From Blastocatellia bacterium (GTDB taxonomy: Bacteria; Acidobacteriota; Blastocatellia; UBA7656), in assembly GCA_035275065.1 (NCBI GenBank), contig DATENM010000150.1, positions 80,620 through 144,619 of the forward strand: a stretch of 64,000 nt of DNA, written 5' to 3'. Position numbers and translations under genes: made by a program. Within the stretch, counting starts at the first letter, position 1, and every line of letters starts with the position of its first letter. Of this stretch, positions 21,838-46,337 are shown piece after piece. The notes under the pieces are model-generated. The model ran no database searches and was not told where the DNA came from. It was given only the letters and a program-made list of their open reading frames with translations.

Positions 21838-22293
21838 CTGTGCTTATCGGGGGCAGTATACCACAACGGGCCCAATCGCCCGGCAGCGGCCCAGCCAGCC
21901 GCATCCAGAGAATTAATCCGGTTAACCAGCTACTAGACGAGTCTAGGATTCACAGAATCGGTGGGATGTTATTAAGGGAGATTAAAGGCGAGTCTCAATC
22001 CGCTATCCATCGCGTCTTCCGTTCAAAAGCCAGCCATCCTGATCTATTGTTTGTAACTGGACGGACCATCGGCTTGATTACTATGACCGGCTACGAACAA
22101 TAAGTCTTGGCTCTTGAACTACAAAAAATCCATATGTATGCAGTTGTCAATGATCGAGTCCAGCCTGATGACTGTGACAGTCTCGGCTGGTGATAAGCCG
22201 GCACTACTGTACGGGGGCTCCGATGGTTTTGACAATCACCATCGGTTCGAGCTTTCTCTTGCGCCTGAGCTGCGGCAAGCCTAGCTCGCTGCC

Positions 22294-23264
22294 TCAGCTT
22301 GCCAGCCATCGAGCGTAAGCGCGGATGTCAATCATTGGCACCGTGGCGCTGCTCTGGAGACGCGCGATTAATTCTAATAGGAATGCTGTGGCAGGTTTGC
22401 CTCCAACTATGATGGTGTAGCAGTCATTCGCGTCGCAGGTAAATGTGCCATGTGCAGCAACGCAGCCGATGTCAAGGTGGCCCTCTGGCCCACTACTGAG
22501 CGCATCCGTCAGGGGCTTACCCAGAGCAGGGTTCCATTCACTCTCAAAGGTTAGCAGACCTCCGAAGATGTGAGGCAATGGCCTTGCAGGGTACGTGCCG
22601 CCGGCATAGGGGATCGGAAGGCTGGTACGGTGAAGACGACGGACGCTGGCCACCTTTTCCTGGGCATATTCGACATGGCGAGCGTTAATAGATTGCTTGG
22701 CCTCAAACACTGCGTAGACGCTTTCGGAAGGGATGATGAGCTGGCCTTCATAATGAAAGATAAAGGGCGAATACTGTCGATCAAATACCACAACATCGAT
22801 TTGCTGGCTGAAGGCCCCATTGCTGTCCACGACGTGCGCCATTTCAGATTGATAGCGTTCGGGCAAATAGGTTTGGAGTAACTCGAGCCAGACATGCTCG
22901 GTAGCGTTACCCTTAGTGCCCCTCTGTGCAAAGCGGGTTCTGCATTCGAATGCTGCTGGGAGAGATTAGTCTCTACATCCGCCCATTTACTCGTAGCTAT
23001 TTCATGGGCCAGCTTCAAGAGCCTCTCAGCTGCTGAAGAGGGGTGATTTAAATTCAATACCAGTGCTCGCAAGTCGTCCTTGATCGCCGTCCAATGTCCA
23101 GGAAGGTCATCAATCACCAGGGCACTGAATGCCTCAAATCCCTGGTGGCTTTCCGAGTTCCCCTTGTCAGCATTGACGGATAGCGGTCGGCCAGTGCGCT
23201 CCCGAAAGCGGCCAATGTCGTACAGAAGCGCGGCTAAAATGATCGTCCGGTCATACTCTGACAT
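22294..23264 (-). pseudogene. DUF6602-like PD-(D/E)xK nuclease gene split by a 1-nt frameshift at a G4/C4 run (N-part carries a degenerate HD-like AALLYDIGRF motif)
   Basis: The downstream frame stays open upstream of the track's TTG start and reads ...RGTKGNATEHVWLELLQTYLPERYQ...QIDVVVFD...VFEAKQS (DUF6602 signature plus D..ExK). The upstream frame (ATG at 23264) reads sensibly up to ...EPALHRG and then turns to Ser-rich nonsense. The two frames meet at CCCC 22919-22922. Confidence 0.5.
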
Positions 23265-23336: not shown

Positions 23337-23771
23337 TCAGGCCACAAGTTTGTATCTGCCTAACCCAAAGCTTGTGCCAGTTCCGATGTGTAATATCTCG
23401 CCAGCGATAATGAGCGGGATAAACTCCTGGATTTCTTCGCCAGCGTATTCGATGGTGCCAACAAAGCCACCCATGTTCATCTTGACCTTTTGTCGGCTCG
23501 AATATCTTTCCCAATCTCGCCAGTGTAGACCCGACGCGCTTGTCCGAACGTTCGATGCTTGTTCAATCAAGGCTCGATAATTCACGTCCAGCCGCCCACT
23601 TCCATGGACCGCTGCTAATAAGGAAATCCTTCGCAACAGGTTGCGAACCAACAGTTCAAAAGTCAGCGCCTGCTGCAAATCACCGTCTACACGGATTCGA
23701 GCCGGCGTCTGGAAATTTAATCGGATTTCATTCAGGTATAGTGACCCCGCCGGGCAGAAAATTTCATGGAG
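23337..23771 (-). pseudogene. Cas6-family RAMP endoribonuclease, C-terminal fragment (5'-truncated)
   Basis: The frame is open from the stop at 23772-23774 and reads LHEIFCPAGSLYLNEIRLNFQTPARIRVDGDLQQALTFELLVRNLLRRISLL...GEILHIGTGTSFGLGRYKL. The last part is the glycine-rich Cas6 C-terminal loop motif. There is no ATG, and about half the usual length is missing. Confidence 0.55.
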
Positions 23772-24129
23772 CTAAAGAAAACCTCTTGAAATGAGATGGG
23801 TCTAAAAAACCATGACCTGTAGTCGATATACATATTGCTTTTATTGTTCGCCGAGATTAAAGTGGGAACACTTCGAAAGGCAAAGTGACAATATTTGCTT
23901 TGCCGGACCACAAAATAAGACGCACCTCTTAGCGGATTGAAGTCGATACAGGGTCCAAGGCCCTGTGAATAATCAGCCGCGTTTGGCGATGACCACCGTC
24001 TATGCGAAAACGCTTCCCGAACGTTGATCGGGAGACTGCGCCGCCGGTCAGATTCGGGGCGTCTTCAGCCAGCGCAAGGTCTGTTATCCAGAAAGCCAAT
24101 CGCGATAGGGCCATCTGGGAGATCACAGG

Positions 24130-25545
24130 ATGAGCAAGAAAATTAAAATCCTCTTTCTCGCCGCCGAACCGACCGATCTGTTTCGCCTGCAACTGGGAAA
24201 GGAATGCGAGCGGATCAAGCGCGAAATCGAGCTGGAAGTAAACCGCGACCGCTTCGAGGTCGTCGAACACTGGGCGGTCACAACAAGCGAGTTGATCAGG
24301 GCGCTGCGCAAACACCAGCCAGACATCGTTCACTTCAGCGGTCATGGCGGCAAGAGTGGGATCATCCTTGAAGATGGTTCTGGCGATAGCCATTCGGTTC
24401 CCAAAGAAGGACTGGCGGAACTGTTCGAGATGTTCAGAAATAATGTCCGCCTGGTTTTTCTAAATGCCTGCTACAGCGAAGCCCAGGTGCAGGCTTTTAC
24501 GCAGACCATTGATTTCACGATTGGTATGCGAAAGCCTGTGGGAGATTCCGCAGCCATCAGCTTTGCGGCGGCTTTCTATGGAGGATTAAGTTTCGGCTAC
24601 TCAGTAGAACAGGCGTATAGAATGGCCAATATCTTGCTTAAGCTCGACCGGTTGCCGGACCAGAACAATCCAAGACTATTCACCCGCAGAGGCGTTGATG
24701 GCTCAAGGTCGTTTCTCGATCATATACCTGTTCCGCAATTGACTAAAAAATGGCGCGGGGCCAAAGGACTCCGCAGTAGTAAGGGGAAGAGAACGGACGA
24801 GCCACAGGTAGGTTTATGGATTCATGGATGGGTTAAACGACTGTATGATTGCCTTCCCACAGTCGAGCTTGACTGGACGGAATACTTCCGTCGCGATACC
24901 AGGAAAGTTCCGAGCCAGCAAGCCTGGAACCTTTCTTTATTTAAAGATCTTCAAAAAGCCAAGAAAGAGCTTGATAAGCATAGTCAGGGAGCCTTTATAG
25001 ATTTTCGGGGCAAGTTACCGCTAACGGCGCTGCTCGCAGTTGGGGCTACGTTTCCTGAGGTCGGAGGCTACAGCCTTCGCGCCGAACAGCCCACCCGTGG
25101 TAAGACGGTTCTGTGGAGGTCCGATGCTGGTTCATCGAAGCGCGGGTTTAAAATCTTAGTGGCCAAACAGAGAAAAGGCAGCCGCAAGCAGGATATTCTC
25201 ATCGCTTTATCAATTACCGGCAGCGCTAGAGATGAAGTTGTTGCACTCTATAATCAGTATCCTGAAACTTTCTCGACATTGATTTACGCTGAACCGAATG
25301 ATGGGACGGGGGATGGGAGCTTGCGCTCGGATAAGGATGCTATGGCTTTAGCCATCCATGCCAAGGAACTGATCCGAGAGTGCAAGCGCGATTACCAGGC
25401 CTCGCAAGTGCACCTGGTAGTCCATGGCCCGGGTGCGTACTGTCTGTTTCTTGGTCAGCGGCTCAATGCCTTAGGGACCCTAATCACGTATGAGAGGGCG
25501 CTGAACGGAAGCTACAGGCGATCAGTTACTCTGCATACGGGGTAG
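24130..25545 (+). CDS. CHAT (caspase-like) protease domain fused to a C-terminal SAVED/CARF-like sensor domain
   Basis: N-terminus: ILFLAAEP...DIVHFSGHG...VRLVFLNACYS gives a His/Cys dyad in the short CHAT layout. C-terminal ~270 aa: DILIALSITGSA...VHLVVHGPGAYCLFLGQRLNALGTLITYE follows the SAVED-type terminal pattern. No signal peptide. Confidence 0.65.
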   Translation: MSKKIKILFLAAEPTDLFRLQLGKECERIKREIELEVNRDRFEVVEHWAVTTSELIRALRKHQPDIVHFSGHGGKSGIILEDGSGDSHSVPKEGLAELFEMFRNNVRLVFLNACYSEAQVQAFTQTIDFTIGMRKPVGDSAAISFAAAFYGGLSFGYSVEQAYRMANILLKLDRLPDQNNPRLFTRRGVDGSRSFLDHIPVPQLTKKWRGAKGLRSSKGKRTDEPQVGLWIHGWVKRLYDCLPTVELDWTEYFRRDTRKVPSQQAWNLSLFKDLQKAKKELDKHSQGAFIDFRGKLPLTALLAVGATFPEVGGYSLRAEQPTRGKTVLWRSDAGSSKRGFKILVAKQRKGSRKQDILIALSITGSARDEVVALYNQYPETFSTLIYAEPNDGTGDGSLRSDKDAMALAIHAKELIRECKRDYQASQVHLVVHGPGAYCLFLGQRLNALGTLITYERALNGSYRRSVTLHTG

Positions 25546-25814
25546 GGACCAGTCCCAATCGAATGGCGTTGTAATTCTCTCATAAAGCGCATAGGCACTT
25601 TCCTGCTATCTAATCCCATATACTGAAAACTCACTCGACGTATGAAATTATTTCTTCCGAATCGTCACTTATATGTTGTGTGTAGCTTCGCGCGAGGCGC
25701 TCTAGATTAGTCTAATGAGTCACCGCTCGTCTGCCCGCTCTCGGCGTGAGCTGTTGCGAGTTAAAGAGTCAGACTGGGTAGCGGATGACGTAACGAATGA
25801 GAGGAGCGAAACAA

Positions 25815-26012
25815 ATGGCAGAACGCAAGACGACAAAAGAATCGACAAGAGATGGCACGCTTCAATCTTTGAGGACCGCCAAGGCCGGCAGCAAGAAGAA
25901 GCCCGCCAAAGACCTTGAAAGGAGTGGTTCTCTTCAATCATTGAGGGGGGCGTCTTCCAAGAAGGGAACAGGCACATCAAAAAAAGCTGTCCGCAGTAGT
26001 AGGACTCGCTGA
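25815..26012 (+). CDS. small (65 aa) Lys/Ser-rich basic protein with internal G(T/S)LQSLR repeat
   Basis: A GAGGAG RBS sits 8 nt upstream of the ATG at 25815. The sequence is MAERKTTKESTRDGTLQSLRTAKAGSKKKPAKDLERSGSLQSLRGASSKKGTGTSKKAVRSSRTR. I recognise no homology. Confidence 0.4.
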   Translation: MAERKTTKESTRDGTLQSLRTAKAGSKKKPAKDLERSGSLQSLRGASSKKGTGTSKKAVRSSRTR

Positions 26013-26148: not shown

Positions 26149-26253
26149 CAAGCAATCCTCTCTGGCAGGGGTAGCGACTACGCGTCGTTAATCCCCGCCT
26201 GGGAGATAGGTTCGACGCGGCCCACGGGCTCCCCTGTCAGAGAGGATTGCTTG
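26149..26253 (+). other. 105-nt nested hairpin (candidate structured RNA or palindromic element)
   Basis: The outer 23-bp stem pairs 26149-26171 with 26231-26253, with a single G-T (G.U) pair. Inside is a 7-bp stem CGCGTCG/CGACGCG (26181-26187 / 26213-26219), and inside that TCCC/GGGA (26092-style apex at 26192-26204). It lies in a ~560-nt ORF-poor gap. Confidence 0.45.
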
Positions 26254-26575: not shown

Positions 26576-29500
26576 ATGTTCCAACCAGGGAATTGTCGAT
26601 TCTCGTTGACCAACTTTCCCCGGCATACCGTATACAGGTTGATCTTGCTGATAGTTCTGCTAGCAAACGTGTGCCCCCGCTCGTTTGCGCATCGCTACAA
26701 CCGGGAAGCGGGAACGAGCCTTGGGACGGCGCTTAAGCCCGTAACCACTAATCAAGAGCCCATTCACTTATTGCCAGGAAAAACGATTAGGCAGGAGGTC
26801 GGCGCAGGTAAACGCACATCTTTCCAGATCATACTCTCTGCTGCCCAATTTGTGCGTGTGATCTTTGAAGGGGAGTGGGCTGTCTTCTCGGTGAGCCTGT
26901 CGGCTCCATCACATCACAGGATCTATGAGTTCAATACTCGCCGATTCAGACCGACTCCCCTTACATTCATTACAGACTTCTCAGGCACATATACCCTAGA
27001 CATTGAATCACGCGAAGAAGAAGGAGAAGCGGCACATTGTCAACTGACGATTGAGTCGGTGCGAAGGCCGGCCGCGGGGGATGGTTATCTGATCGCCGCT
27101 GAGCGAGCAACCGCAGAGGCTGAAAGGCTGCGGGAAGAATGGCAACTTAAATCGCTGACGCAGTGCATCGCGAAGTATAAGCAGGCACAGACTTACTGGC
27201 GCCGGCTCGATAATCGAGCCGAGGAAGCCAGTGCGCTCAAAAGCATCGGCGATGTCTACGCGACACTCGGCCAAAATCCGGCTGCCCTGACCTCCTTTAA
27301 TCTGGCACTTCCATTGAGTAAGGTCGCCGGTGATCGGCAGCTGGAGATTGATATTCTCAATGCATTGTCGGAAGTCCAGGCTGATCTAGGAAACTGGCAA
27401 GCCGCACTGGATAACGCTAGACAGGCACTCACCCTCAGCAACGAAGTCGGCTTCATTCGGGGGAAAGCCCGAGCCTTAAATGCTATTGGCCTGGTCTATC
27501 ACCTGTTGAGCGATTTTCAGCAGGCGCTCAACACTTTCGATCAGGCCATGAACCTCTGGCGAATATCCCAAGACCGCCGCGGTCAAGCGCAAACGCTAAC
27601 GAACATCGCCTATTCATATGGTGATCCCGGCGACCTGCAAAAATCCCTCTCATTGTTCAATGAGGCATTGCTCCTTTGGCGCAAATCAAAAGACCTGCGG
27701 GGGGAAGCTCAGACGCTGACGACAATTGCTTTGCTAAATAGCTCGCTTGGTGAAATGCAGAAGGCATTTGATACCCATACGCAGGCGATTCGTCTCTTCC
27801 GAATGATGGGGGATCTCGCGGGCGAGGCCGTTACCCTCAATGGGATGGCATATATTTATGAAACCCTGGGAGATCGCCAGAGGGCAGTAGAGCTTTTCGG
27901 CAGGGCCTTGAAACTCTTTCAAGTGGCTGGCAGGCGCTCTAGCGAAGCGATTACCTTAGGCTTGATTGGTGAAGTCTATTATTCACTCGGAGATAATCAA
28001 AAGGCCCTTGAGTATCACACGAAGAAGCTCAATGCAACTCGCTCTCTCGGTGATCAGAGAGCAGAGGCTTACACACTGAGAGACATGGGGATTGTCTTTG
28101 ACTCGCTCGGGAACAAAGACAAGGCGCTCGATTACTTGAGCCGTGCGCTCTCACTGAGCAAGGCGGTTTCTGACCTGCGTGCACAAGCCTCAACGCTTAA
28201 TGGTCTCGGATCCATTAGTGAGAGGTCTGGACAAAGGGAGAAGGCGCTCGTGTTTTATCAGCAAGCCCTCCACCTCAGCCGGGCCTCAGAAGATCGCGCA
28301 CAAGAGGCACAAACACTTCACAACATCGCTCGGGCTTACCGCGATCTTGGCAACCTTGCAGAGGCATATGAGCAGGCCAAGGCCCTGTTAGATATAGTTG
28401 AAACGCAACGCGTCAAAGTCGCCAGCCGGGAACTACAGGCATCCTACTTTGCCTCCGCGCATCAGCACTACGAGCTATATATCGGAATCTTAATGCGTAT
28501 GCACCGGCAGAATCCTGGCTCAGGCTATGACACTGTAGCCTTCGGAGCGAGTGAAAGGTCTCGCGGGCGAGTCTTGCTTGATCTATTGAACGAGGCCCAG
28601 GCAGACATTCGACAGGGTGTCGATCCGGTGCTGTTGCTGCACGAGCGCGAGCTCCAACAATTGCTCAATACCAAAGCAGAGCGACAGATGCGCCTGCTCA
28701 GTCGCTCGCATACAGAGGAGGAGGCAACAGCAATTAAAAAAGAGCTTGTAGACATTACAAGTCGGTATGAAGATGTACTAGCTCAGATCAGGGCGACCAG
28801 TCCGAAATATGCCAATCTAACGCAACCCCATACGATGACCCTTTCCGAGATCCAACAAATACTAGATGCAGATACCATGGTTCTGGAATATTCGCTCGGG
28901 GAAGAACAGAGCTACCTTTGGGCTGTGACATCGAAATGGGCTAAGGTGTTTGAGCTGCCCCCTCGTAAGAAAATAGAGGCCGCAGCAATTCGACTGTACA
29001 GATCCTTAACCGGAGACGCCCAAAGCCAAAGTAGCAAGTTTCCACAGCAACGAAGTAGGGCCTTAGAAAACGAAGCTTCTCAATACGGTGAGGCGGCAAC
29101 GGACCTCACAAGCATGTTACTCGATCCTGTCGCGCCTTACCTTGCAGCCAAGCGATTAGTTATCGTAGCGGATGGGGCACTACAATACGTGCCCTTTGCT
29201 GCGCTTTGCGATCCTAACAACCCCAAAGAAACCAGGCAAGAACAGCCTCTTGTGGTGAATCACGAAATCGTCAACCTGCCATCAGTCTCAATACTTTCAG
29301 CTCTGAGGTCAGAGACCAATGGACGCAGCCCTGCGCCGAAAGCGCTTGCAGTCTTCGCAGACCCGATATTTGAGCGTAACGACCCACGGGTCATAATGAA
29401 CGAAGGCCGTCGAAGGAATAATGTTAATAACAAGCCTGGCCACATTGAAGTGAGCCGAGGCCAGTACCAACCGAGGTCTGATGAACTACTAGATGAGGCT

Positions 29501-30097
29501 AAAGAAAGACTGCGGTTTGAGCGATTACCTTTTGCGGCAAGTGAAGCAATGACCATTGCCAGTCTTATACCTGAGCAACAGCGTAAGCTAGCTCTCGGTT
29601 TTGATGCAACCCTCTTTGCAGCAAAGAGCCCGGACCTACAGCAATATCGTATATTGCATTTTGCGACTCATGGACTGATCTATGGAGAGCACCCGCACCT
29701 GTATGGCGTCGTGCTCTCTCTGGTGGATAAGCAGGGAAATCCACAGGATGGGTTTCTTCGGCTTAACGAGATTTACAATCTAAAGCTCACCGCCGACTTA
29801 GTTGTCTTAAGCGCGTGCCAGACTGCCTTGGGAAAGGACATTCAAGGAGAGGGGATCGTGGGGCTGGCGCGCGGGTTTATGTATGCCGGGGTTGCGCGCG
29901 TAGTCGCCAGCTTGTGGAAGGTAGACGACAGAGCCTCGGCGGAGTTAATGAAGTATTTTTATGAAGAGCTGTTTGGTCGGAACCAATTACGCCCCGTCGC
30001 GGCTTTGCGAGCCGCCCAGGTGCGGATGTTGCAGCAACCGCGCTGGAAGTCTCCTTACTACTGGGCTGCCTTCATACTCCAAGGTGAATGGAAGTAG
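26576..30097 (+). CDS. secreted/membrane-anchored TPR-repeat protein with C-terminal CHAT protease domain
   Basis: N-terminal hydrophobic segment YRLILLIVLLANV. More than 12 TPR-like 40-aa repeats (A..L..IG.VY..LG....AL..F..AL.L). The C-terminal CHAT domain has ILHFATHG and LVVLSACQT (His/Cys dyad). Confidence 0.9.
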   Translation: MFQPGNCRFSLTNFPRHTVYRLILLIVLLANVCPRSFAHRYNREAGTSLGTALKPVTTNQEPIHLLPGKTIRQEVGAGKRTSFQIILSAAQFVRVIFEGEWAVFSVSLSAPSHHRIYEFNTRRFRPTPLTFITDFSGTYTLDIESREEEGEAAHCQLTIESVRRPAAGDGYLIAAERATAEAERLREEWQLKSLTQCIAKYKQAQTYWRRLDNRAEEASALKSIGDVYATLGQNPAALTSFNLALPLSKVAGDRQLEIDILNALSEVQADLGNWQAALDNARQALTLSNEVGFIRGKARALNAIGLVYHLLSDFQQALNTFDQAMNLWRISQDRRGQAQTLTNIAYSYGDPGDLQKSLSLFNEALLLWRKSKDLRGEAQTLTTIALLNSSLGEMQKAFDTHTQAIRLFRMMGDLAGEAVTLNGMAYIYETLGDRQRAVELFGRALKLFQVAGRRSSEAITLGLIGEVYYSLGDNQKALEYHTKKLNATRSLGDQRAEAYTLRDMGIVFDSLGNKDKALDYLSRALSLSKAVSDLRAQASTLNGLGSISERSGQREKALVFYQQALHLSRASEDRAQEAQTLHNIARAYRDLGNLAEAYEQAKALLDIVETQRVKVASRELQASYFASAHQHYELYIGILMRMHRQNPGSGYDTVAFGASERSRGRVLLDLLNEAQADIRQGVDPVLLLHERELQQLLNTKAERQMRLLSRSHTEEEATAIKKELVDITSRYEDVLAQIRATSPKYANLTQPHTMTLSEIQQILDADTMVLEYSLGEEQSYLWAVTSKWAKVFELPPRKKIEAAAIRLYRSLTGDAQSQSSKFPQQRSRALENEASQYGEAATDLTSMLLDPVAPYLAAKRLVIVADGALQYVPFAALCDPNNPKETRQEQPLVVNHEIVNLPSVSILSALRSETNGRSPAPKALAVFADPIFERNDPRVIMNEGRRRNNVNNKPGHIEVSRGQYQPRSDELLDEAKERLRFERLPFAASEAMTIASLIPEQQRKLALGFDATLFAAKSPDLQQYRILHFATHGLIYGEHPHLYGVVLSLVDKQGNPQDGFLRLNEIYNLKLTADLVVLSACQTALGKDIQGEGIVGLARGFMYAGVARVVASLWKVDDRASAELMKYFYEELFGRNQLRPVAALRAAQVRMLQQPRWKSPYYWAAFILQGEWK

Positions 30098-30130: not shown

Positions 30131-30673
30131 ATGATCGATAAGAACTCTCAAGCCTTTGAAGCCTTACTGCTCCGTCTCGAGCCAAGCCTTCCTGACCCAG
30201 AAAAGAGGTATAAACAGTTGCGCTCAAAAATGGTAAAGTTCTTCGGGTGGAAACGTTGTGAGGAACCGGAGTCCCTTGCTGACGAAACCATCGGAAGGAC
30301 GGCCAGGAATCTTGGTGCGGGAGAAGCGATTCACGCGGATAATCCTTACTCCTACATCTATGCGATTGCCAGGAATGTATTCAGGGAATATCTTCGAGAT
30401 AAGAAGAAGCGAGAGATGATTAGCAATAATTTACCTGATCACACTCAAACATATTGTGAGGATTCGCAAGATTGTAGGAAGGAATGTTTGCACGGGTTGT
30501 CCCGGGATAAACGCAGTTTACTTCAGCATTATTATGCAGGCGAAGAAACCAGAGATAGATTAGCTCAGTCCCTAAACATGAGTCTCAATGCCCTGAGATT
30601 ACAAATACATCGGCTCAAACAGGAATTAAGGGCATGTGAGGAGCAATGTCTTCAGAATTACAAAAGGAGGTAG
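30131..30673 (+). CDS. ECF-like sigma-70 family RNA polymerase sigma factor
   Basis: 180 aa with a region-2-like segment (ESLADETIGRTARNL...YIYAIARNVFREYLR) and a region-4 HTH-like segment (LSRDKRSLLQHYYAGE..RDRLAQSLNMSLNALRLQIHRLKQEL). It starts 33 nt after the TPR-CHAT stop. Confidence 0.7.
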   Translation: MIDKNSQAFEALLLRLEPSLPDPEKRYKQLRSKMVKFFGWKRCEEPESLADETIGRTARNLGAGEAIHADNPYSYIYAIARNVFREYLRDKKKREMISNNLPDHTQTYCEDSQDCRKECLHGLSRDKRSLLQHYYAGEETRDRLAQSLNMSLNALRLQIHRLKQELRACEEQCLQNYKRR

Positions 30674-30816
30674 AAATTTATCCTTCTATTTTTTCACTTA
30701 TATGTAAAGGGCAAGATGGTGAGCGATCAGACTACCCTGGCCTGGGGTCGTAATCTGTTCCTGCTGCATTCGGAAGGGTTGTTGGCGATTTTAATACTGT
30801 ATTAAGGGTTACTACC

Positions 30817-31800
30817 GTGAAGCAGAAGACGCTGCAAGAAGACTTGATGATCCGCTATCTGCTGGGGGATTTGACGGAAGAGGAGCAAGCCCAAATTGAG
30901 GGGCGGTTCCTGGCTGATAATCAGTATTTTGAACAACTGTGCTCGGTTGAAGATGCTTTGATTGATGAGTATGCACAAGGCACCCTGGCCGAACATGAGC
31001 GTGAAAAGATCGAAAGTCTATTATTATCCTCTAAGCGCCAAGCTCACGAGATTGAATTTGTCCGCGACATGATCAAGTTCGTTTCCGAGCATCCTATTGA
31101 CGAGCCAGGCAAGCAAGGTTCGGCCCATTTCAAGCCTGCCAGTAAAGTGCGCTCTTTGATGACCTTTCTGCACCTGAGAAGTAGGCGTCTCTCTTTCGCC
31201 GGAATGATATTCTTGATTGGAATAGTTGTATCTTTAGTCTTATGGAATTTTTCACTTCAAAAGAGAATCAGACACATGGGCTCTCTGCAAGCGGTGCTAG
31301 AACAAAACCAAGAGGAATTACGGCAGCAAGTTATTGTAGAAAAAGACAGCCGTGAGGCAATGATTAAAGAGTTGGAAAGCGAACGCCGTGAGCGAGAGCA
31401 ACTTAAAGAAAAAGTCATCACCTTGCAGGAATCTGGACCATTGATCTCAAGGAATAATACTACCATTCTTGATGTCCAAGCTGCCGCCTTCACCAGAGGT
31501 CAAGGGCAGTTGAGGGTGGTACATATCAACCCGAACGTTTCTCGATTCCAAATCAGAATACATACGGATAAACCGGGCGGTTACCAGACCTACACCGCAT
31601 TGATCAAAACATTTGAAGGGACCCAAGTCTGGAGTAAGGATCAAATCAGACCGAATCAAATAAATTCAAGGACATTGGTTCTAACCCTCCCAGCCGCAAT
31701 TCTAAACAACGACGATTACATACTTACACTGGAAGGAAGAACTGAAGCTGGTACAACAGTAGGAATTGGAGATTATCCTTTCCGAGTCAAGAGATGGTAA
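30817..31800 (+). CDS. single-pass membrane protein, anti-sigma-factor-like
   Basis: The N-terminus MIRYLLGDLTEEEQAQIEGRFLADNQYFEQL resembles cytoplasmic anti-sigma domains. One TM segment (LSFAGMIFLIGIVVSLVLWNF), a coiled coil, and a ~130-aa external domain follow. The start is either GTG at 30817 or ATG at 30847. Confidence 0.6.
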   Translation: MKQKTLQEDLMIRYLLGDLTEEEQAQIEGRFLADNQYFEQLCSVEDALIDEYAQGTLAEHEREKIESLLLSSKRQAHEIEFVRDMIKFVSEHPIDEPGKQGSAHFKPASKVRSLMTFLHLRSRRLSFAGMIFLIGIVVSLVLWNFSLQKRIRHMGSLQAVLEQNQEELRQQVIVEKDSREAMIKELESERREREQLKEKVITLQESGPLISRNNTTILDVQAAAFTRGQGQLRVVHINPNVSRFQIRIHTDKPGGYQTYTALIKTFEGTQVWSKDQIRPNQINSRTLVLTLPAAILNNDDYILTLEGRTEAGTTVGIGDYPFRVKRW

Positions 31801-38791: not shown

Positions 38792-41700
38792 ATGAGCAAT
38801 ATCTTAATGGTTCCCATCCACGTGGACGCGCTGTTTCTCAGCCTGGACCAGCCGGTCGTCGAAGCGATGGCGGATTTCTCCCGGCTACCTTATTCAGATG
38901 GAACGCGCGAGTGGAATCCTGACATTGCCTATATCAGTGAAGACATCGTCTCCAAGCCCTTTCAAAATGATAACCTGCTCTTGAAAGCGGGCCTCCATCT
39001 GCATTGGGCCTTGCCCGACGCGTTGACGAAAGGCGCTCAAACAGCAGATGGGACAAGCTTTCCGGCGGTGCCGAATCGCTGGCTGGTTATGCGCAGTAAC
39101 CTGGACGAGAGCGGTCAACGGACGGTAGACAAACAATGGATCGTCGAGAGCGACTATCTTTATCCTGAAAGTGCTGGGGATGAAACGGCTGGCGTCAGCA
39201 TCGGTAACCTGACCAACCTGACAAACGGCGCACCCCCCAGGCCCTTTCGCTACCTGGGCCGAAAGATGTCTTTAACGGCGTGGCCGGCGGGGAGCGCGCA
39301 AGCCGACTTTGTCCTGACCGCCGTCGGGTATGGAGAACCTGCCTTCGCGGCTTTTTATCCGAATTGCCACAGCGTCTTCGGTCTATACGACGATGCGTAC
39401 TCGGACGCCCTCCCTCCGGGTCTGCAATATGATGTCGTCGGCTGGTACGCCGATGAGGGCCGGGATTATCTCGAAACATTTATCCGTGAGGTGACTGGCG
39501 ATTATCAAGAGCAGGGTCAAGCGCCGCCTGGCGACGACGACTTACAAACCGCCCTGGAAGAGCAAGCCCAATGGACGTATGAGACCAGTGGTAACCAGAC
39601 GTTCCCGGCTCGCATGCTCTGCTACACGCGATTGACCTTCAACCCGAACCCTGAATCCATCGACAATCCTGATAAAGCAGACCCCAATACCCGCATCACG
39701 GTGGCAAACACCGGCACAGAAGCCCTCTCGGCTTACCTGGCCGATAGGATTGTTCGCAGCCAGATGCCCGATCCCTCAACCGTAGGAATCGACAGGGAGA
39801 AAAAGTCGGAGGTCGAAGATCAACTGGAAGCCGTTCAATTTTCAGATTGGCTCGACACGCATCAGTTAGACATCGGCGCAAAATTTGTAGAGGCCCGTCA
39901 CGAGAAAGGCTTTACCGCCACGGGCGACGACACCCTCTGGACAGTCACACAGGAATCTCAGGACACCGAAGCCGATGCGGCGCGGGGCGACGCGCAGGCG
40001 CAGATCACCTTGCCCCAAGACATGGCGCATCAGCTCAACACGCTCAACCAGCGCCAAAAGACGTATGACCGCGCCCGGCAAGAGATCGAGTCTCTGCGCC
40101 AGCAGCTGTTTGCCGATTGGTACAAGTATATGCTCTGCGCTTACCCGCCCGAAGACTCGCAGGACGATTATCCGGATATAGATGAAGTGAAGCATTTCAT
40201 CGAAGTCAAAAGCATTGCTCCCTTGCAGAGCAAGCTGGCTGCCACAGGGGCGCTCTCCTTAGCGACCGAGAACGGACAAATCATTGCCTCCATCGCTGAC
40301 TCTTCCGGCGATTCTTTAGCGGCTCAGCTCAAGCAGGCCATAGACGCGCTACAGCAAGCCGTCACGGCCCACAACGGCATTCCCGAGGTGCAGGCGGCCC
40401 ACATGACCTACAAGCTCAAGCCGGTAGCGGGTGCGCGGTACTGGCAGCCGAACGAGCCGGTGGTGCTCTTGACGGGGCAGGCCGTGAAGCCCACTCCCAG
40501 ATATGGCAGGGATGGCTCTCCGCAAGATGACGGCTTGCTGGAGTGTGCGCTCTTAGTTGGACAAGAGATAGAGGACTTGCTGCCATATCACGGCGAGCGG
40601 GTCGCGGCCGCCATGGATAGCCTCGCAGCCGCCGCGAATGAGGAGAAGGTCGGCTTCAAGCTCTGGACGCAACAGCCCTGGAATCCCTTCTTGCTGGAAT
40701 GGGAGGCGGAGCTATTGCCCACCGAAATCGGCAACAATCTCGACCCTGAGACGGGAAGCTACGCGCATAGCTTCATCAAAGACAATTTCACTCTGGCGGT
40801 CAATGACGTTGACCTCTCGGTCACGCCGGGAAAGGGGGCCGTGGCGAAGGCCGCTAACGTCTACACCGGATCAAGCCTTCTGACCGCCCATGCCAGCGAG
40901 TTGTTGACCGAAGACCTGGGAAATTATCTGCAACAACAACTGCTCGGCGAATACTACGAGCAGCAGCAGGTCCCGCCCGCCGAGCAGACCGAGAATTACT
41001 TCAATGAGAACACGGCGACGATTCTTGATTGGTATAAACAGACCCATTGCAGCCAGGACTCCGACACCTCTACCTGTCACCTGATACAGGCCTATGAGAT
41101 GCTCACCGACCCGAGCTTCTACAGCCTGTCGCAATCGCTCGGCGGCTTTAACGAAGCCTTACTGATGCACAAGCAGACGCTGCAATTGGCCATCGCGGAT
41201 CCCCTGGGATTTGACGACTATCAAGCCTTCGCCGCCAGCGTGAGCGATGCCGTTGCGGGCAGCATCAAAAGCGCGCCGGAGCCGCTCAATGACTTCAACC
41301 CGATTCGCTCGGGGGCGTTGAAGCTGACGCGCCTGCGACTGGTGGATTCCTTCGGGCAGATCAAAGAGCTGGATTGCACGAGCGTCATCACCACGGAGAA
41401 GATGACGCTGCCGCAGAATCCTTATCTGATGATTTTGCCGCCGCGCCTGGCGCAGCCGGCTCGCCTCAACTTGCGCTGGCTCTCTGCGGCTCAAGATGAG
41501 CAGGAGATGAACGACCATCCGGCCACGACGCCGATCTGCGGATGGGTTTTGCCCAATAATCTGGACAGCAGTCTAATGATTTATGATGGCGACGGAAAAG
41601 CGCTCGGGTCAATCAATCGTAACGCCCAATGGGAGCCCACGCCCGCCAGCCCCTCTCCGGCGCAGCCCTCCGACATCAGCAATTCTCACCTGAACAAAAT

Positions 41701-42727
41701 GGTGATGACCCTCATTCGCCTGGGCGCTGCCTTCCTGGGCCATTTCATCTCGGCGATAGATAACGCTCTGGAGAAGATCGAGCCGGAAAACTATGCCCAG
41801 CATCAAGACCTGGCGCTTTTGATTGGCCGCCCGCTCGCGCTCGTGCGTGCCGCGCTCAATCTCGAATTGCAGGGACTGCCCGCCGTTCATCAAGGGTGGG
41901 AAGCTTTTCGTCAAGACCTGCAACGTATCAACAGAGAAACCAGCCACTTCGAGCACGTGGAGTTTCCGATCCGCATCGGCGAATACCAGCAATTCAATGA
42001 TGGCCTGGTAGGCTATTGGAAGGAGGCCGGCGACGCCTATGAGGACGACCTGTTTTATGCCCCGCAAACGGATCTTAGCGAAGATGAGCTGATCACGACC
42101 CATGCCGACGAAACCGGCGAATATGATCCGATGATTATCTACCGGACGCTAAAATCCGAGACGCAGGTCCTTGCCATGCTGGTTGACCCGCGCGGCGAGG
42201 CGCACGCCACATGCGGCGTCCTCCCCTGTAAATCGAGCCGCATCCCGCCCGACCAATACACGGATGCGCTGGCCGCTATAGAAGTCACCTTCCTCTCGGC
42301 GCCCATCCTGACGCCGAGCGGTGAGATCAGTCTGCCGCTCCCGCCGGAGCCCGGATACCGCTGGTCCTGGTTGCAGAAAGCAGACGGCGACTGGTCGGAA
42401 ACTTCATCAACCGGCGTGGTCGAGAAGCAGACCTTTTTGAGCGCCTTTACTAACGGGGAAGATGTCTGGAATCGCTTGAAGCAGGAGGACAAGCGGTGGA
42501 TTGAAGAGATCGATGCGACAAAGGCCAGCGTGACGGCTAAAGATCAGCGACAGAGTGCGGACCTGGGCGAGGATATGAAAGATGAGCTCCCGGCCATCGA
42601 GATCATTTTATCCCGCGCCTACATCGGACAAGTCGAATTGCAGGCCACCTTTTCCGGCACCCCGGTGGTGCGAGAGGGCTGGCTCAAATTGAGCGAGGCC
42701 GAAGACGCTCCCGCCTCGCCATCCTAA
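38792..42727 (+). CDS. giant hypothetical protein (1311 aa), no recognised domain
   Basis: Uninterrupted 3.9-kb ORF with protein-like composition, first gene of a co-directional cluster. It has no signal peptide, no P-loop, and a central Gln/Glu-rich coiled-coil-like stretch (QRQKTYDRARQEIESLRQQLF). Confidence 0.85.
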   Translation: MSNILMVPIHVDALFLSLDQPVVEAMADFSRLPYSDGTREWNPDIAYISEDIVSKPFQNDNLLLKAGLHLHWALPDALTKGAQTADGTSFPAVPNRWLVMRSNLDESGQRTVDKQWIVESDYLYPESAGDETAGVSIGNLTNLTNGAPPRPFRYLGRKMSLTAWPAGSAQADFVLTAVGYGEPAFAAFYPNCHSVFGLYDDAYSDALPPGLQYDVVGWYADEGRDYLETFIREVTGDYQEQGQAPPGDDDLQTALEEQAQWTYETSGNQTFPARMLCYTRLTFNPNPESIDNPDKADPNTRITVANTGTEALSAYLADRIVRSQMPDPSTVGIDREKKSEVEDQLEAVQFSDWLDTHQLDIGAKFVEARHEKGFTATGDDTLWTVTQESQDTEADAARGDAQAQITLPQDMAHQLNTLNQRQKTYDRARQEIESLRQQLFADWYKYMLCAYPPEDSQDDYPDIDEVKHFIEVKSIAPLQSKLAATGALSLATENGQIIASIADSSGDSLAAQLKQAIDALQQAVTAHNGIPEVQAAHMTYKLKPVAGARYWQPNEPVVLLTGQAVKPTPRYGRDGSPQDDGLLECALLVGQEIEDLLPYHGERVAAAMDSLAAAANEEKVGFKLWTQQPWNPFLLEWEAELLPTEIGNNLDPETGSYAHSFIKDNFTLAVNDVDLSVTPGKGAVAKAANVYTGSSLLTAHASELLTEDLGNYLQQQLLGEYYEQQQVPPAEQTENYFNENTATILDWYKQTHCSQDSDTSTCHLIQAYEMLTDPSFYSLSQSLGGFNEALLMHKQTLQLAIADPLGFDDYQAFAASVSDAVAGSIKSAPEPLNDFNPIRSGALKLTRLRLVDSFGQIKELDCTSVITTEKMTLPQNPYLMILPPRLAQPARLNLRWLSAAQDEQEMNDHPATTPICGWVLPNNLDSSLMIYDGDGKALGSINRNAQWEPTPASPSPAQPSDISNSHLNKMVMTLIRLGAAFLGHFISAIDNALEKIEPENYAQHQDLALLIGRPLALVRAALNLELQGLPAVHQGWEAFRQDLQRINRETSHFEHVEFPIRIGEYQQFNDGLVGYWKEAGDAYEDDLFYAPQTDLSEDELITTHADETGEYDPMIIYRTLKSETQVLAMLVDPRGEAHATCGVLPCKSSRIPPDQYTDALAAIEVTFLSAPILTPSGEISLPLPPEPGYRWSWLQKADGDWSETSSTGVVEKQTFLSAFTNGEDVWNRLKQEDKRWIEEIDATKASVTAKDQRQSADLGEDMKDELPAIEIILSRAYIGQVELQATFSGTPVVREGWLKLSEAEDAPASPS

Positions 42728-42749
42728 GAATATTTCGGACGCGAAAAAA

Positions 42750-42929
42750 ATGGACAGCTTAACCCTTAACTTAACGCTCGAAGAAATCAACACGGTGCTT
42801 GAGGCTCTGGGCCAGATGCCCTATGTCAGGGTCTATCAACTGATCTTGAAGATTCAGCAGCAGAGCGCGCCGCAACTATCCCATGCGAAGCCGCCTGAAG
42901 GAACCAGCGGGAAGGAGCAAGAGCAATGA
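42750..42929 (+). CDS. 59-aa micro-ORF translationally coupled to the LamG/fibre gene
   Basis: Below the ORF-track cutoff. My translation is MDSLTLNLTLEEINTVLEALGQMPYVRVYQLILKIQQQSAPQLSHAKPPEGTSGKEQEQ*. Its TGA (42927-42929) overlaps the ATG at 42926 (ATGA). It starts 22 nt after the previous stop. Confidence 0.45.
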   Translation: MDSLTLNLTLEEINTVLEALGQMPYVRVYQLILKIQQQSAPQLSHAKPPEGTSGKEQEQ

Positions 42930-45900
42930 GCGCTTCAGCAGAGAGCCTGATTCTTCATCTGATTTTTGAAGAGGTCAAAAATAACATGGTCGAGGATGCC
43001 TCCGACTATGACCATGATTGCACTTTACATGGCACGCGCCCGCCACAACTCATTCCGGATGACAACTTCGGCAGCTGCCTGAGCTTCGATGGCGTGGACG
43101 AATACGTGTCTCTTCCAGACCTTCAGGGGGATTACGCCGGCGGTCTCACGATTGAGGCCTGGGTCTTCTACTCCAGCTTTGATCTGCCGTCGAAGATCAT
43201 CGACCTGGGCAATGGGCCGGGCAGCGACAATATTATTTTGATGGCTGAGGCCATGCCGCCAAATGAAGCGTCATCGCCCAGCCTGAGTCTATCGATTTAC
43301 CGCGGCAGCGCCCAGCAAACTCTGTCGGCCGACAACGTCCTGCGGCTCAATGAGTGGATGCACCTGGCCGCGACCATTGACCCGCAGGCCAACGCGACGC
43401 TCTACATGAATGGGGAGGAGGTCAAGAGCGGATCCTTACAGTTGCCGCAGAAGGTAGACCGCCGGAATAACTATCTGGCGAAAGGCAACTGGCCTACAGA
43501 CCCCTACTTTCAAGGCAAGCTCGCCAGCATCCGAGTCTATAGCTCGGCGCTTTCCGCCGAAGAGATCAATCTGGATATGCAGGAGGATCAAACGGCGGCA
43601 GCTTCTTTCAGAACAACCCACCCGCTTGATTTTAATCTTTTTGACGATGACGACCAGCAGGTGCTCTACATTGCAGATGATTCATCTGCGGGAGAGAACC
43701 TGCATCTGGAAATCACCAACAGCTCGCGTCAAAGCATGGAGATGGCGCAACCGAACGGCAACCCGCCGGGTGTCGACAATCATCATTTTGAGCTGCGCTT
43801 CCGGCCCGGCACGCTTTCAGCTTCCTCTCTGAACAGCATCCGTCTGGCCGAGAGCGATTGGCAGATGGCGAAAGCGCAGCAGGCCGATGGCACCATCTCG
43901 CTCTTTCTTCTGAGTGCCGCGGCAATGACGCTTGCGCCGACGGCCAAGATTAAGCTCACACTTCAGCACGTCAACGCCGATGCGGGTGCGGGTGCGCGCG
44001 GCACCAGAGTCGAGCTCAGATACCAGCAGCTTCAATATGCCGGCAGCACGACTTCGGTTAATGGCAGCCGCGTGCAACACCTGAGCATCGTCAACCATAG
44101 CGGCAAGAAGAATATTCCGCTCCACGTCGGCTTCGTCGGCTCGAACACGATCTTGAACGACGCGGGCGAGACGGCGAGCGATTTGAAACTGCGAATCACC
44201 AATCTTCAGGTAGATCAGAGCCTCACTCTGAATACGATAGAGACTAGCGCGCCGACCCGATTTGTCCTCTCCTTCGACGGGCAGGATGAGGATGAAAGTA
44301 AGGAGTGGGCCCTGGGGAGTGATACCGAGTTGGCAAAGGTGGAGATACACTGGGGCTTGCTGGGCACGTTGGCCGAGGCCACCGTAAGCGGGGAGCCTGC
44401 GGAGCCGCTCACTCTTTCTATTACCCCTGCCCTTGATCGCGACCTCGCTGCCGGCACTTCCCTGGGCGTGGTTTCGCAGGCGGGAGATTCGGTCGTGGCG
44501 GTCGTTGCCAACACCGCCTTCAGGGGACAAAGCGCGATCCGGATACAGCCACTCAGCACGCAGCAAATAAGCATCCTTGAACAAGGCGCGGAGGTCTATC
44601 TACGCGATGTGGTTTGGAAAGCCGACGAGCCTTCCCTTCAGGGGATAACGCCGCAGTGGACTTTCACCAATCAGAGCCAGGTGGAGATTGGCCCGAGTGA
44701 GGGCATCCAATTGCGGATCACGAATATTCGATCTTCTCTGCCTTCGGGCTACGCCAACCTCTACGTCCGCTATGAAAACATCCCGGGCTATTGGGACGGG
44801 CAGTACGTCTGCGCCATTGAAAAAGCGCCAATCCTGTACAGGCAGAATTATGTCGGCATCGGCACGACGAAGCCGGGGTTCCCGTTGACGATTCGAGGTG
44901 CTTCAACGTCTGAAGAACTGCTCGGATTCGAGGACACCAATGGCCAGTTAAAATGGCACCTCAACCAAAAGCTCGATGCGGCGCCGCCCGGCCTGAATAT
45001 CGCCGAATCACGGGTTGCTGATGGGAGACTATTTATTCGGGCGGGCGGCAATGTCGGCATCGGCACGACCAGCCCGCAGGCGAAATTGCATGTTTCTCAA
45101 GGCGCGATCATGCCGGAACAAGGCAATTCGGAGCAGGCCGGTCTGTTGTTCCCCAAAGACCCTGGCGGCGGCAGCGGCGATGCGGCCTGGATCCGCTACT
45201 ATCCCGTCAGCGGCGAAGCCACGACGCTAGAGATCGGCGTTGCCAACAATGCGGACGACAATTTAGCGTTGACGGCTTCCGGCAAGATCGGGTTGACGGC
45301 TGCCAATGACATCGCGTTAACGGCGGCGGGCAGCATCGCGTTGACGGCTTCTGGCAGCATCGCGTTGATGGCGGCGGGCAGCGTCGGCATCGGAACGACG
45401 ACCTCTCCACAGGATTTCAAGCTCGCCGCGAGCGCCGCCAGTCAACATTTACAGTTGCGCCGAGAGACCAATCAGAGAGTCGGTGGGAAGGTCCTGTTTT
45501 TGGAGTTATTCCAGGCCGACCAATCACCGGCAGCCGTGCCGGAGGTTTATCCGAGCATACGGTTTCATCACCAGTCTCGTTACTGGCAGCGCATCGAGGC
45601 CCGCTCCGACGGCATTCACTTCAAAGGGGGTAACCTGGACTCTGATAGCTACACCCTCATTTATGCCGATCAGGGCGTCTTTGACGGATCGGTGAAGCTC
45701 GGCTCGGCCACCTCGGAGAACTACGTCGGGCGTGGGGCCAACTTTCACGTCAACAACGCAAGCTTTAAAACTCATTCGAGCGGCAATTATTCTTGGACTA
45801 ACACGTCGTCCAACACCATCCGAATTGCCGGCGCTGATGGAGGCGTGCTGGCGACGAAAGATGTAGAAGTGCTTGAGTGGCACACGAGTGCCGTCATCAT

Positions 45901-46264: not shown

Positions 46265-46337
46265 GCCTCCCGTCCGCACGCAAACATTCCGAGATTAACG
46301 ATGAGCGCGCGGATTGGCGCGGTAAAGGAGTTTGATT

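Follow-up and report, generated by a model that had tools for sequence, protein, structure and literature searches.

What is a protease with its own sensor for a cyclic signal doing in a stretch of DNA that holds no intact enzyme to make that signal? The question is raised by a gene in 64,000 nucleotides from a Blastocatellia bacterium (contig DATENM010000150.1 of assembly GCA_035275065.1, forward strand, positions 80,620 to 144,619), and this whole stretch is called the window below. The gene encodes a CHAT protease domain followed by a SAVED domain, and its product is named CHAT-SAVED here, a term that is absent from the searched literature. From its sequence and its genomic company, it is likely that CHAT-SAVED is a cytoplasmic, caspase-like protease activated by cyclic oligoadenylates (cOAs), that it serves as a signalling effector of type III CRISPR (clustered regularly interspaced short palindromic repeats)-Cas systems, and that the cassette of genes next to it is a regulator resembling DdvS/DdvA of Myxococcus xanthus. 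Proteases activated by cOAs are the newest class of output in type III CRISPR and in cyclic-oligonucleotide-based antiphage signalling systems (CBASS), and those studied so far are CalpL and SAVED-CHAT. The coordinates of all features are collected in Table 1.

A CHAT protease domain fused to a Cap4-type SAVED domain

CHAT-SAVED consists of a CHAT protease domain (residues 1-199, with a His-Cys dyad formed by H72 and C114), a disordered linker (200-223) and a Cap4-type SAVED sensor domain (224-471). The dyad lies in the motifs HFSGHG (residues 68-73) and LNACYS (111-116), and the C-terminal string that a first-pass annotation of the locus had quoted for the SAVED domain corresponds to residues 427-455 of the translated open reading frame (ORF). 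Pfam places CHAT (PF12770) at residues 49-168 (E 3.6e-10, 40.2 bits, above the cutoff of 24) and SAVED (PF18145) at residues 282-468 (E 1e-26, 94.3 bits against a cutoff of 26.2). The NCBIfam SAVED model NF033611 matches residues 221-468 (E 1.2e-31, 110.2 bits against a cutoff of 33), and the PADLOC model SAVED3-SAVED_PDDEXK covers residues 218-471 (E 1.7e-89), with the match confined to the SAVED part of that model. An AlphaFold2 model made with 41 homologues has a mean predicted local distance difference test (pLDDT) score of 85.7 and shows two domains joined by a disordered linker, with pLDDT mostly above 90 across the SAVED residues 224-471. No hydrophobic segment was found in a hydropathy scan of the protein, which fits a cytoplasmic location. 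The first-pass annotation had called a compact N-terminal CHAT domain with a His/Cys dyad, a C-terminal SAVED domain, the domains in this order, and a cytoplasmic protein; all of this agrees with the results given here, including the structural comparison that it had proposed as a check. The two findings that it had named as refutation, a C-terminal half unlike SAVED/CARF structures and a His/Cys dyad that varies among homologues, are both contradicted by the results below.

When the model was compared with the PDB by Foldseek, each half was matched separately. The C-terminal half resembles the SAVED domains of Cap4 (7yia/7yib, 6vm6, 6wan) and of a TIR-SAVED protein bound to cyclic triadenylate (cA3; 7qqk), with E values of 1e-11 to 1e-13. 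Its fold is that of SAVED, a fused double-CARF-like domain. The wider set of matches takes in the SAVED domains of Cap4, TIR-SAVED, Cap5 and CalpL (E 1e-13 to 1e-7), and several of the nearest structures were solved with cyclic trinucleotides. A profile of the CHAT-SAVED family matched the Cap4 SAVED domain in the PDB at E 1.4e-17. For the CHAT half, profile positions 7-187 align with residues 287-473 of 8tl0, which is SAVED-CHAT (E 1.1e-30), and in this alignment H72 and C114 fall on the HGxG and NAC motifs of 8tl0. Foldseek superposes the same domains with a root-mean-square deviation of 2.5 Å over 190 columns; their identity is 29%. In the PDB search the family profile did not match the SAVED domain of 8tl0, and chains holding that domain alone appear at Foldseek rank 36 (E 6.5e-8), behind Cap4 and TIR-SAVED.

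SAVED-CHAT belongs to a type III-B system of Haliangium ochraceum, where it is activated by cA3 and in turn activates a protease called PCaspase (Steens et al. 2024). The two proteins have in common a homologous compact CHAT domain, the His-Cys dyad, the fusion to SAVED and an adjoining type III system with a cyclase-competent Cas10, which for CHAT-SAVED is seen in sister loci. In both cases a second protease of the CHAT/caspase family lies nearby, together with a sigma factor, which is a putative one here. However, the SAVED domain is N-terminal and the CHAT domain C-terminal in SAVED-CHAT, whereas CHAT comes first here; the SAVED domain here belongs to the Cap4 lineage; and PCaspase, PCi and a kinase are all lacking here, an apparently exported TPR-CHAT protein and a putative membrane anti-sigma factor being found instead. 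No C14-type PCaspase gene is listed in the gene tables of the window and its sister loci, where the only second protease is TPR-CHAT. With its reversed order, its other SAVED lineage and no PCaspase partner, CHAT-SAVED is not a member of the SAVED-CHAT family as that family is defined. Recombination has here joined the same mini-CHAT module to another sensor, one of Cap4 type, and in reverse order, and by analogy with SAVED-CHAT and CalpL we infer that it works as a cOA-gated protease.

Two other known proteins are close to CHAT-SAVED in their arrangement. Cap4, a nuclease-SAVED protein of CBASS and type III systems, also has an N-terminal effector and a C-terminal SAVED domain. The SAVED half of CHAT-SAVED taken alone is 45-57% identical to the SAVED domains of nuclease-SAVED (Cap4-like) proteins of ~489 amino acids (aa), and it superposes on Cap4 structures bound to cyclic trinucleotides. 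The difference lies in the N-terminal effector, which is a PD-(D/E)xK/DUF4297 nuclease in Cap4 and a CHAT protease here. The other protein is from M. xanthus, where DdvS/DdvA drives an operon with a CD-NTase and an effector that has CHAT at its N-terminus and SAVED at its C-terminus; this was described as type I CBASS, by prediction only (PMC11506125). The domain order is the same in that effector, but it is paired with a CD-NTase, and no CD-NTase gene stands beside CHAT-SAVED in the gene table of any locus compared here. The order CHAT-then-SAVED has thus been noted once before, as the prediction of this M. xanthus CBASS effector.

In a large-database search, proteins with both CHAT and SAVED at full length form ~50 clusters of 435-473 aa. 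The closest relatives (90%, 67% and ~60% identity) are all metagenomic, a clade at ~40% identity comes from Nostocales cyanobacteria, and the nearest species-level genome match is a metagenome-assembled genome from Blastocatellia (Acidobacteriota). An alignment of 41 full-length members shows H68, G71, H72, L111-N112-A113-C114 and many positions of the SAVED domain to be invariant; the catalytic H72 and C114 are thus kept in 41 of 41 homologues, down to 37% identity. A scan of metagenome contigs gave just two further full-length loci. In a scan of genome contigs most matches covered only residues 1-190, the mini-CHAT, and this ~190-aa unit was found alone or fused to TIR-like and NTPase-like regions, to Sel1-type repeats and to other regions. 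Judged by these fusions, mini-CHAT acts like a movable protease unit that many types of sensor have taken up. Without SAVED it adjoins cassettes of TPR-CHAT and sigma genes in six loci, mostly from Acidobacteriota (L013, L046, L053, L055, L080, L154; ids of this kind denote loci of related genes that were compared with the window). Outside such cassettes it occurs fused to other domains in L044, L061, L041, L052 and L085.

Type III CRISPR-Cas modules and their remains in the window

A type III CRISPR-Cas module lies beside CHAT-SAVED in all 11 distinct related loci that have enough flanking sequence (12 locus ids: L001, L002, L003/L004/L007, L005, L167, L168, L169, L170, L087, L088). The modules are of several kinds: type III-B Cmr in L001 and L169, III-D-like with Csx19/Csm2/Csx21 in L002, L003/L007, L167 and L168, and a fused-RAMP type III variant in L170. 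In L087 and L088 CHAT-SAVED is the final gene of a cmr operon, adjoined by cas2, cas1 and a fusion of reverse transcriptase (RT) and cas1, and in L005, a Nostocales locus, the module is again adjacent. The cas6 genes of the sister loci are 68-80% identical; their Cas10 proteins are mutually very divergent. In eight of eight Cas10 proteins checked (from seven CHAT-SAVED loci and L171) the GGDD motif is present and the N-terminal HD domain is absent, and therefore these type III systems should act through cOA. CHAT-SAVED is the sole cOA sensor that was recognised in the CHAT-SAVED loci. At least three kinds of HD-less type III system, from two phyla, have it as a neighbour, and such systems should depend wholly on signalling.

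In an intact island, as read from the sister loci, a type III complex guided by CRISPR RNA (crRNA) would bind the RNA of an invader, upon which the HD-less, GGDD-containing Cas10 would synthesise cOA, most likely cA3. The Cap4-type SAVED domain would bind this product, probably with head-to-tail oligomerisation, and the CHAT domain (H72/C114) would thereby be switched on and cleave one or more protein substrates, giving the immune output. Three points argue for cA3 as the most likely ligand. NucC is cA3-dependent, and the island contains a nucC remnant; it is rare for effectors with different cOA ligands to be found together (PMC11229360); and the structures nearest to the SAVED domain are of proteins that bind cyclic trinucleotides.

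The CHAT-SAVED of the cyanobacterial clade has at its side a protein of ~272 aa, for which PADLOC gives a match (E 5e-108) to Mem_02, a membrane protein with two transmembrane helices. This protein may be a clade-specific partner or substrate of CHAT-SAVED.

The window itself has no functional type III system; what is present are truncated cas6, cas10 and nucC genes and one CRISPR repeat. CHAT-SAVED sits here in an island of ~10 kb (~21900-31900) with ~51% GC, compared with 62% in the flanks. Tandem-repeat and direct-repeat searches found no CRISPR array in the window, and the single repeat was recognised by comparison with the syntenic locus L169, where it matches 31 of the 37 positions of the 37-nt repeat of a 9-copy array; the repeat pattern occurs twice in the window against an expectation of 0.01. 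By this comparison, the solitary repeat is the last remainder of an array. The nucC pseudogene is 79-81% identical to intact NucC proteins of 239 aa and is fused out of frame to the cas10 remnant, whose own frame, past its 105 codons, continues over nucC out of frame. This remnant directly follows cas6, in the same order as cas10 of the sister loci. In an exhaustive search it was matched by residues 11-99 of P0246, an 850-aa protein that is a Cas10 (E 1.6e-128); the PDB gave no match to it, and a word-indexed search gave no homologues. Upstream of the cas6 fragment there are in-frame stop codons, and blastn against L001 and L169 shows that a deletion of ~870 bp, sized by comparison with L001, took the 5' two thirds of cas6, the leader and part of the promoter. 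As read from these alignments, two deletions removed the type III effector genes of the window and most of the array. The closest relative of CHAT-SAVED, P0002, with 90% identity, has kept a gene of 261 aa or more at the expected position of cas6, and therefore the decay of the type III locus in the window is probably recent.

At codon 15 of the cas10 remnant (23219-23221, minus strand), in LLYDIGRF, there is a Tyr at the first His of the HD motif, which in canonical Cas10/Csm1 we take to be LLHDIGK.

In locus L171 a fused-RAMP type III module is directly preceded by a CBASS pair, CD-NTase (E 6e-97) and NucC, and a TPR-CHAT lies nearby. This is a hybrid island of CBASS and type III, and it shows that a NucC beside a type III module need not be driven by Cas10. 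The idea that the cas10 fragment of the window could be the remnant of a CD-NTase was prompted by this locus and was rejected, the fragment having no similarity to the L171 cyclase and being linked to a bona fide Cas10.

Among the ORFs of the 64-kb window, which apart from the island are mostly housekeeping genes, there is no intact Cas10 or CD-NTase. The first-pass annotation had stated that neither gene is present, which holds for intact genes and fails for the cas10 remnant. Its reading of the protein as a candidate caspase-like protease activated by cyclic oligonucleotides is supported; it had missed the wreck of the type III locus, the earlier M. xanthus prediction and the fact that the downstream cassette belongs to the same island. 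The type III cyclase having been lost from the window, CHAT-SAVED is an orphan here unless a cyclase elsewhere in the genome supplies its ligand. It is therefore a serious possibility, if somewhat short of an even chance, that the window copy is the decaying relic of a lost defence island and is currently without function. The truncation of cas6, cas10 and nucC, the reduction of the array to one diverged repeat, the damaged copy of the cas promoter and the lack of a cyclase over 64 kb are all consistent with this. Against it, CHAT-SAVED is full length with all family-invariant residues kept; its leader elements, the small ORF, the RNA and the genes for TPR-CHAT, sigma and anti-sigma are all intact; and a cyclase encoded outside the window, whose 64 kb come from a contig of ~169 kb, could act in trans. 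In either case the window documents how such an island decays, with the sensor-protease and the regulator surviving and the cyclase lost.

Table 1. Positions of the CHAT-SAVED gene, of the other elements of its island and of features named in the text; positions are those of the window unless a locus id is given.
Feature	Position	Strand	Remarks
Solitary diverged CRISPR repeat	21992..22028	-	TTTTGAACGGAAGACGCGATGGATAGCGGATTGAGAC; between AMP-binding gene and nucC pseudogene
nucC pseudogene	22297..22962	-	222 open codons; start codon and first ~20-30 codons missing
cas10 remnant	22950..23264	-	~105 N-terminal codons; HD-type N-terminus MSEYDRTIILAALLYDIGRF...; PADLOC Cas10a E 6e-4
cas6 3' fragment	23337..23734	-	C-terminal ~132 codons; PADLOC Cas6 E 1.2e-44, model positions 187-295 of 296
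Damaged copy of promoter-like motif	23737..23765	-	GAAATTTTCTGCCCGGCGGGGTCACTATA; at truncated cas6; motif precedes cas6 in sister loci
CRISPR-repeat-like element	23917..23943	+	AAGACGCACCTCTTAGCGGATTGAAGT; in CHAT-SAVED leader, sense orientation
CHAT-SAVED gene	24130..25545	+	ATG start, 471 aa
Copy of promoter-like motif	25644..25672	+	GAAATTATTTCTTCCGAATCGTCACTTAT; upstream of small ORF
Small basic protein	25815..26012	+	65 aa; 19 K+R vs 5 D+E; two copies of R-[DS]-G-[TS]-L-Q-S-L-R
Conserved structured RNA	26151..26252	+	~100 nt; between small ORF and TPR-CHAT; four stems modelled (three helix blocks in the pair count)
TPR-CHAT	26576..30097	+	1173 aa; signal-peptide-like N-terminus; motifs HFATHG and LSACQT intact
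Divergent ECF-like sigma factor	30131..30673	+	180 aa; below-threshold Pfam matches to Sigma70_r2 and r4_2, E ~5e-3
Copy of promoter-like motif	30673..30701	+	GAAATTTATCCTTCTATTTTTTCACTTAT; between sigma and anti-sigma genes
Putative single-pass membrane anti-sigma factor	30817..31800	+	327 aa; weak zf-HC2 match; position and topology
Run of six very large ORFs	38792..59374	+	1311, 1112, 642, 1469, 644 and 1464 aa; mostly without Pfam match
Structured RNA, L002	11770-11861
Structured RNA, L003	12020-12113
Structured RNA, L167	11773-11864
Structured RNA, L168	12231-12328
Structured RNA, L169	12026-12126
Structured RNA, L170	11658-11743
Mem_02-like protein, L005	11631-12452	+	PADLOC
Mem_02-like protein, L088	12170-12988	-	PADLOC
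CBASS pair (CD-NTase and NucC), L171	9243-10720	+
5' fragment of AMP-binding gene, L169	18568-18987		139 aa, duplicated, at far end of island

The downstream cassette and candidate substrates

After CHAT-SAVED follow, in this order, a small ORF, a structured RNA, a gene for a TPR-CHAT protein (1052-1174 aa), one for a protein of ~180 aa and one for a protein of ~325 aa. Eight loci are close to each other (the window, L001, L002, L003/L007, L167, L168, L169 and L170), and the cassette is conserved in seven of them, L001 having an integrase instead. The contig of L168 stops just past the TPR-CHAT gene, so that TPR-CHAT is seen in seven of the eight and the sigma and anti-sigma genes in six. CHAT-SAVED itself is present without the cassette in L001 and in the cyanobacterial clade; the protease thus does not need the cassette, which argues against the cassette proteins as obligatory substrates.

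The N-termini of the TPR-CHAT orthologues are signal-peptide-like (six of seven above threshold, that of L170 weaker), and so TPR-CHAT is probably exported, away from the cytoplasmic CHAT-SAVED. In a sequence search of the PDB it matched TPR proteins alone, and DdvA and Csx29 were not returned. The ~180-aa protein is a putative, divergent sigma factor resembling the extracytoplasmic function (ECF) type: a profile of 12 orthologues matched SigL (6dv9, E 4.8e-5), SigW (0.019) and SigE (0.027). Among these orthologues C43, C115, C119 and C169 are invariant and C173 nearly so, which is unusual for a sigma factor; these cysteines may serve in metal binding or make the protein redox-sensitive. The ~325-aa protein begins with a helical domain, which is followed by a transmembrane helix at ~125-143 (present in six of six orthologues), a coiled coil and, at the C-terminus, a beta-rich domain, and its putative identity as the anti-sigma factor is given by position and topology.

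Taken together, an exported TPR-CHAT, a membrane anti-sigma factor and an ECF-like sigma factor would most likely make up an envelope-sensing regulator of the DdvS/DdvA kind. In M. xanthus DdvS is a sigma factor of the ECF type, DdvA is a transmembrane anti-sigma factor that carries a TPR-CHAT domain in the periplasm, and the pair drives a type III-B operon (PMC11506125, PMC6061681). The likeness is in the company of ECF sigma factor, transmembrane anti-sigma factor, periplasmic TPR-CHAT (the first three being putative here) and type III CRISPR-Cas, and it would extend to sigma-dependent promoters that precede defence operons. The difference is that in DdvA the TPR-CHAT is the periplasmic domain of one and the same polypeptide, whereas here there is a separate 327-aa transmembrane protein and an 1173-aa TPR-CHAT. 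A split DdvS/DdvA-like module in acidobacterial islands would extend sigma-gated CRISPR expression beyond Myxococcota.

Other systems also combine type III CRISPR, a protease and a sigma/anti-sigma pair in one locus, among them CalpL-CalpT-CalpS, made up of a Lon-SAVED protease, an anti-sigma factor and an ECF sigma factor, and Craspase, in which Cas7-11 goes with Csx29, Csx30 and RpoE. CalpL has a Lon protease and CalpT is soluble, whereas a CHAT protease and a putative membrane-bound anti-sigma factor are found here. Csx29, the TPR-CHAT protein of Craspase, is a cytoplasmic protein that binds directly to Cas7-11 and does not use cOA; in contrast, the cOA sensor is fused to CHAT here and TPR-CHAT is apparently exported.

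With two CHAT-family proteases side by side in seven of the eight close loci, a protease cascade in the style of Haliangium could be imagined, in which CHAT-SAVED acts on TPR-CHAT just as SAVED-CHAT activates PCaspase (Steens et al.), all the more as TPR-CHAT retains its catalytic His and Cys. We consider this very improbable, since the signal-peptide-like N-termini would put TPR-CHAT on the other side of the membrane, TPR-CHAT is not a homologue of the C14 PCaspase, and in DdvA, the closest functional analogue, the TPR-CHAT is periplasmic and acts in sigma release.

The most attractive candidate for a specific substrate is the 65-aa product of the small ORF. The ORF stands right after CHAT-SAVED in the window, L002, L003, L167, L168 and L169, with a variant in L170, and it probably starts at 25815 and not at 25797, because a conserved Shine-Dalgarno sequence precedes 25815. 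The two motif copies in the window protein read RDGTLQSLR and RSGSLQSLR, and the sister orthologues have two to four copies of R-[DS]-G-[TS]-[LI]-[QK]-x-x-R. The strict motif is found nowhere else in those loci, nor in the SAVED-less cassettes or the cyanobacterial loci, so it is unique to CHAT-SAVED islands. Metacaspases are caspase-like proteases specific for Arg and Lys, and the protein, which is Arg-rich and probably disordered, would suit an enzyme of this kind. The promoter-like motif of the island is also present in front of its ORF. The protein could then be a dedicated substrate, or a pseudo-substrate that buffers the protease, with the motif copies as cleavage sites. This is a tentative proposal, and we regard it as rather unlikely: the case is purely correlative, the Steens preprint states no cleavage site, the ORF is missing from L001 and the cyanobacterial loci, and no homologue of known function was found.

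Promoter-like motif, repeat-like leader element and structured RNA

A bipartite motif, GAAATT(T/A)..N..TCAC(T)TAT, has 17 strict matches in the eight core loci, compared with five in 3.95 Mb of other loci. Within the island it has three conserved sites, of which one precedes cas6 on the minus strand, one precedes the small ORF and one lies between the sigma gene and that for the anti-sigma factor. The window has two matches to the strict pattern, both of them inside the island, and the copy at cas6 is the damaged one. The motif resembles promoters of SigW-type ECF sigma factors and differs from that of DdvS, being GAAATT-N-TCACTTAT here as against GTAA-N16-CGT. A simple scan of 23650-26650 for sigma-70 promoters and terminators gave nothing above shuffled expectation. 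The distribution of the motif points to a sigma regulon specific to the island, with the type III cas operon as one member, and the DdvS/DdvA-like regulator would accordingly be expected to drive three promoters, one each for the cas6-cas10 operon, for the small ORF and for the anti-sigma gene.

A circuit like that of CalpL would add CHAT-SAVED to this regulon. Once activated, the protease would cut the cytoplasmic part of the anti-sigma factor (~1-124) or a sigma-bound fragment of it, and the freed ECF-like sigma factor would have the cas operon, the small ORF and the anti-sigma gene transcribed more strongly, making a feed-forward loop with a built-in reset. There are precedents in CalpL/CalpT/CalpS and in Csx29/Csx30/RpoE. 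The linkage of CHAT-SAVED to sigma/anti-sigma and to TPR-CHAT in the close loci fits such a circuit, as do the motif copies that precede the cas operon and the anti-sigma gene, and the cytoplasmic linker before the transmembrane helix, which is poorly conserved and probably flexible. However, the sigma/anti-sigma pair is absent from L001 and from all cyanobacterial-type loci with CHAT-SAVED, the linker has no conserved candidate cleavage motif, and cassettes of this kind also occur with mini-CHATs that lack SAVED, which means that the linkage can exist without cOA. In our view this circuit is improbable. The string RSGKLQSLL in the linker resembles the motif of the small protein and was tried as a general cleavage site; it was rejected, being present in L002 and L167 only.

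Several observations weigh against the reading that we prefer, in which CHAT-SAVED is a cOA-activated type III effector next to a DdvS/DdvA-like regulator. The sigma factor was assigned on weak matches (E 5e-3 with Pfam, 4.8e-5 with the profile). The anti-sigma factor has no match by sequence or structure, a profile search of the PDB returning coiled-coil noise. The bipartite motif is missing in L170 and in the cassettes without SAVED, and its role as a promoter and its dependence on the sigma factor are putative. On the side of the effector, the SAVED domain is from another lineage than that of SAVED-CHAT, and the 64-kb window has no intact cyclase. The NucC of L171, the closest NucC relative among those examined next to a type III module, has a CD-NTase partner of its own; the NucC of the window may thus have been part of a CBASS unit, which weakens the argument for cA3. 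And the fact that CHAT-SAVED and the cassette are tightly linked in seven of the eight close loci is also compatible with a relationship of protease and substrate.

A second element lies in the leader of CHAT-SAVED, ~190 nt upstream of the gene. It resembles a CRISPR repeat (AAGACGC-N7-AGCGGATTGAAG, with a variant ending in /A) and is followed within ~30 nt by a hairpin of 6-10 bp. Its position is kept in seven loci: at 23917 in the window, 9760 in L001, ~9914 in L002, ~9771 in L003, 9900 in L167, ~9681 in L168 and 9772 in L169. In a survey of type III loci, repeat-like sequences were not positionally conserved and were judged to be degraded (10.1101/2023.03.03.530964). The element of CHAT-SAVED islands may be a site for Cas6 binding or cleavage that couples expression of the effector to the CRISPR machinery. 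The idea that it acts as a crRNA-like guide was unsupported, as there is no consistent 11-mer complementarity downstream within the islands.

The third element is the RNA between the small ORF and TPR-CHAT. In its alignment 96% of cells are paired, compared with ~45% in slid controls, and 13 of 32 pairs have double-sided compensatory changes, a number reached by none of 500 shuffles. The minimum free energy is -50 to -65 kcal/mol in six of the seven loci, and the plus strand scores much higher. The RNA is confined to islands with both CHAT-SAVED and TPR-CHAT. It belongs to no Rfam family (nothing at E<=5 over 23700-26600, and zero matches at gathering thresholds over the whole window).

The conserved island with its split DdvA-like regulator, promoter motif, repeat-like leader, repeat-motif protein and covarying RNA is undescribed. 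These parts could be joined into one integrated circuit, in which CHAT-SAVED, activated by cA3, would cleave the small protein and/or the anti-sigma factor, the freed, cysteine-rich ECF-like sigma factor would boost the cas operon in a proteolytic feed-forward, the leader element would be recognised by Cas6 and so couple effector expression to the CRISPR machinery, and the RNA would be a further regulator in cis or in trans, possibly sensing a ligand. As a whole this is speculative and we think it doubtful. If true, it would be the first positionally conserved regulatory element derived from a CRISPR repeat in a type III locus, and a new route from a protease to a sigma factor. In any case, the islands offer a compact set of parts in the 65-aa candidate substrate, the repeat-like leader element and the covarying RNA.

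At its edge, in the window as in L001 and L169, the island abuts the same AMP-binding gene, which is acyl-CoA synthetase-like. In L169 the 5' part of this gene is duplicated at the far end of the island (Table 1), which hints at site-specific integration. Further downstream in the window, and unrelated to CHAT-SAVED, is the run of very large ORFs, in which the exceptions with Pfam matches are DUF6603, Laminin_G_3 and FG-GAP/PPC; genes with FHA and zinc-ribbon domains and for a PP2C phosphatase then follow.

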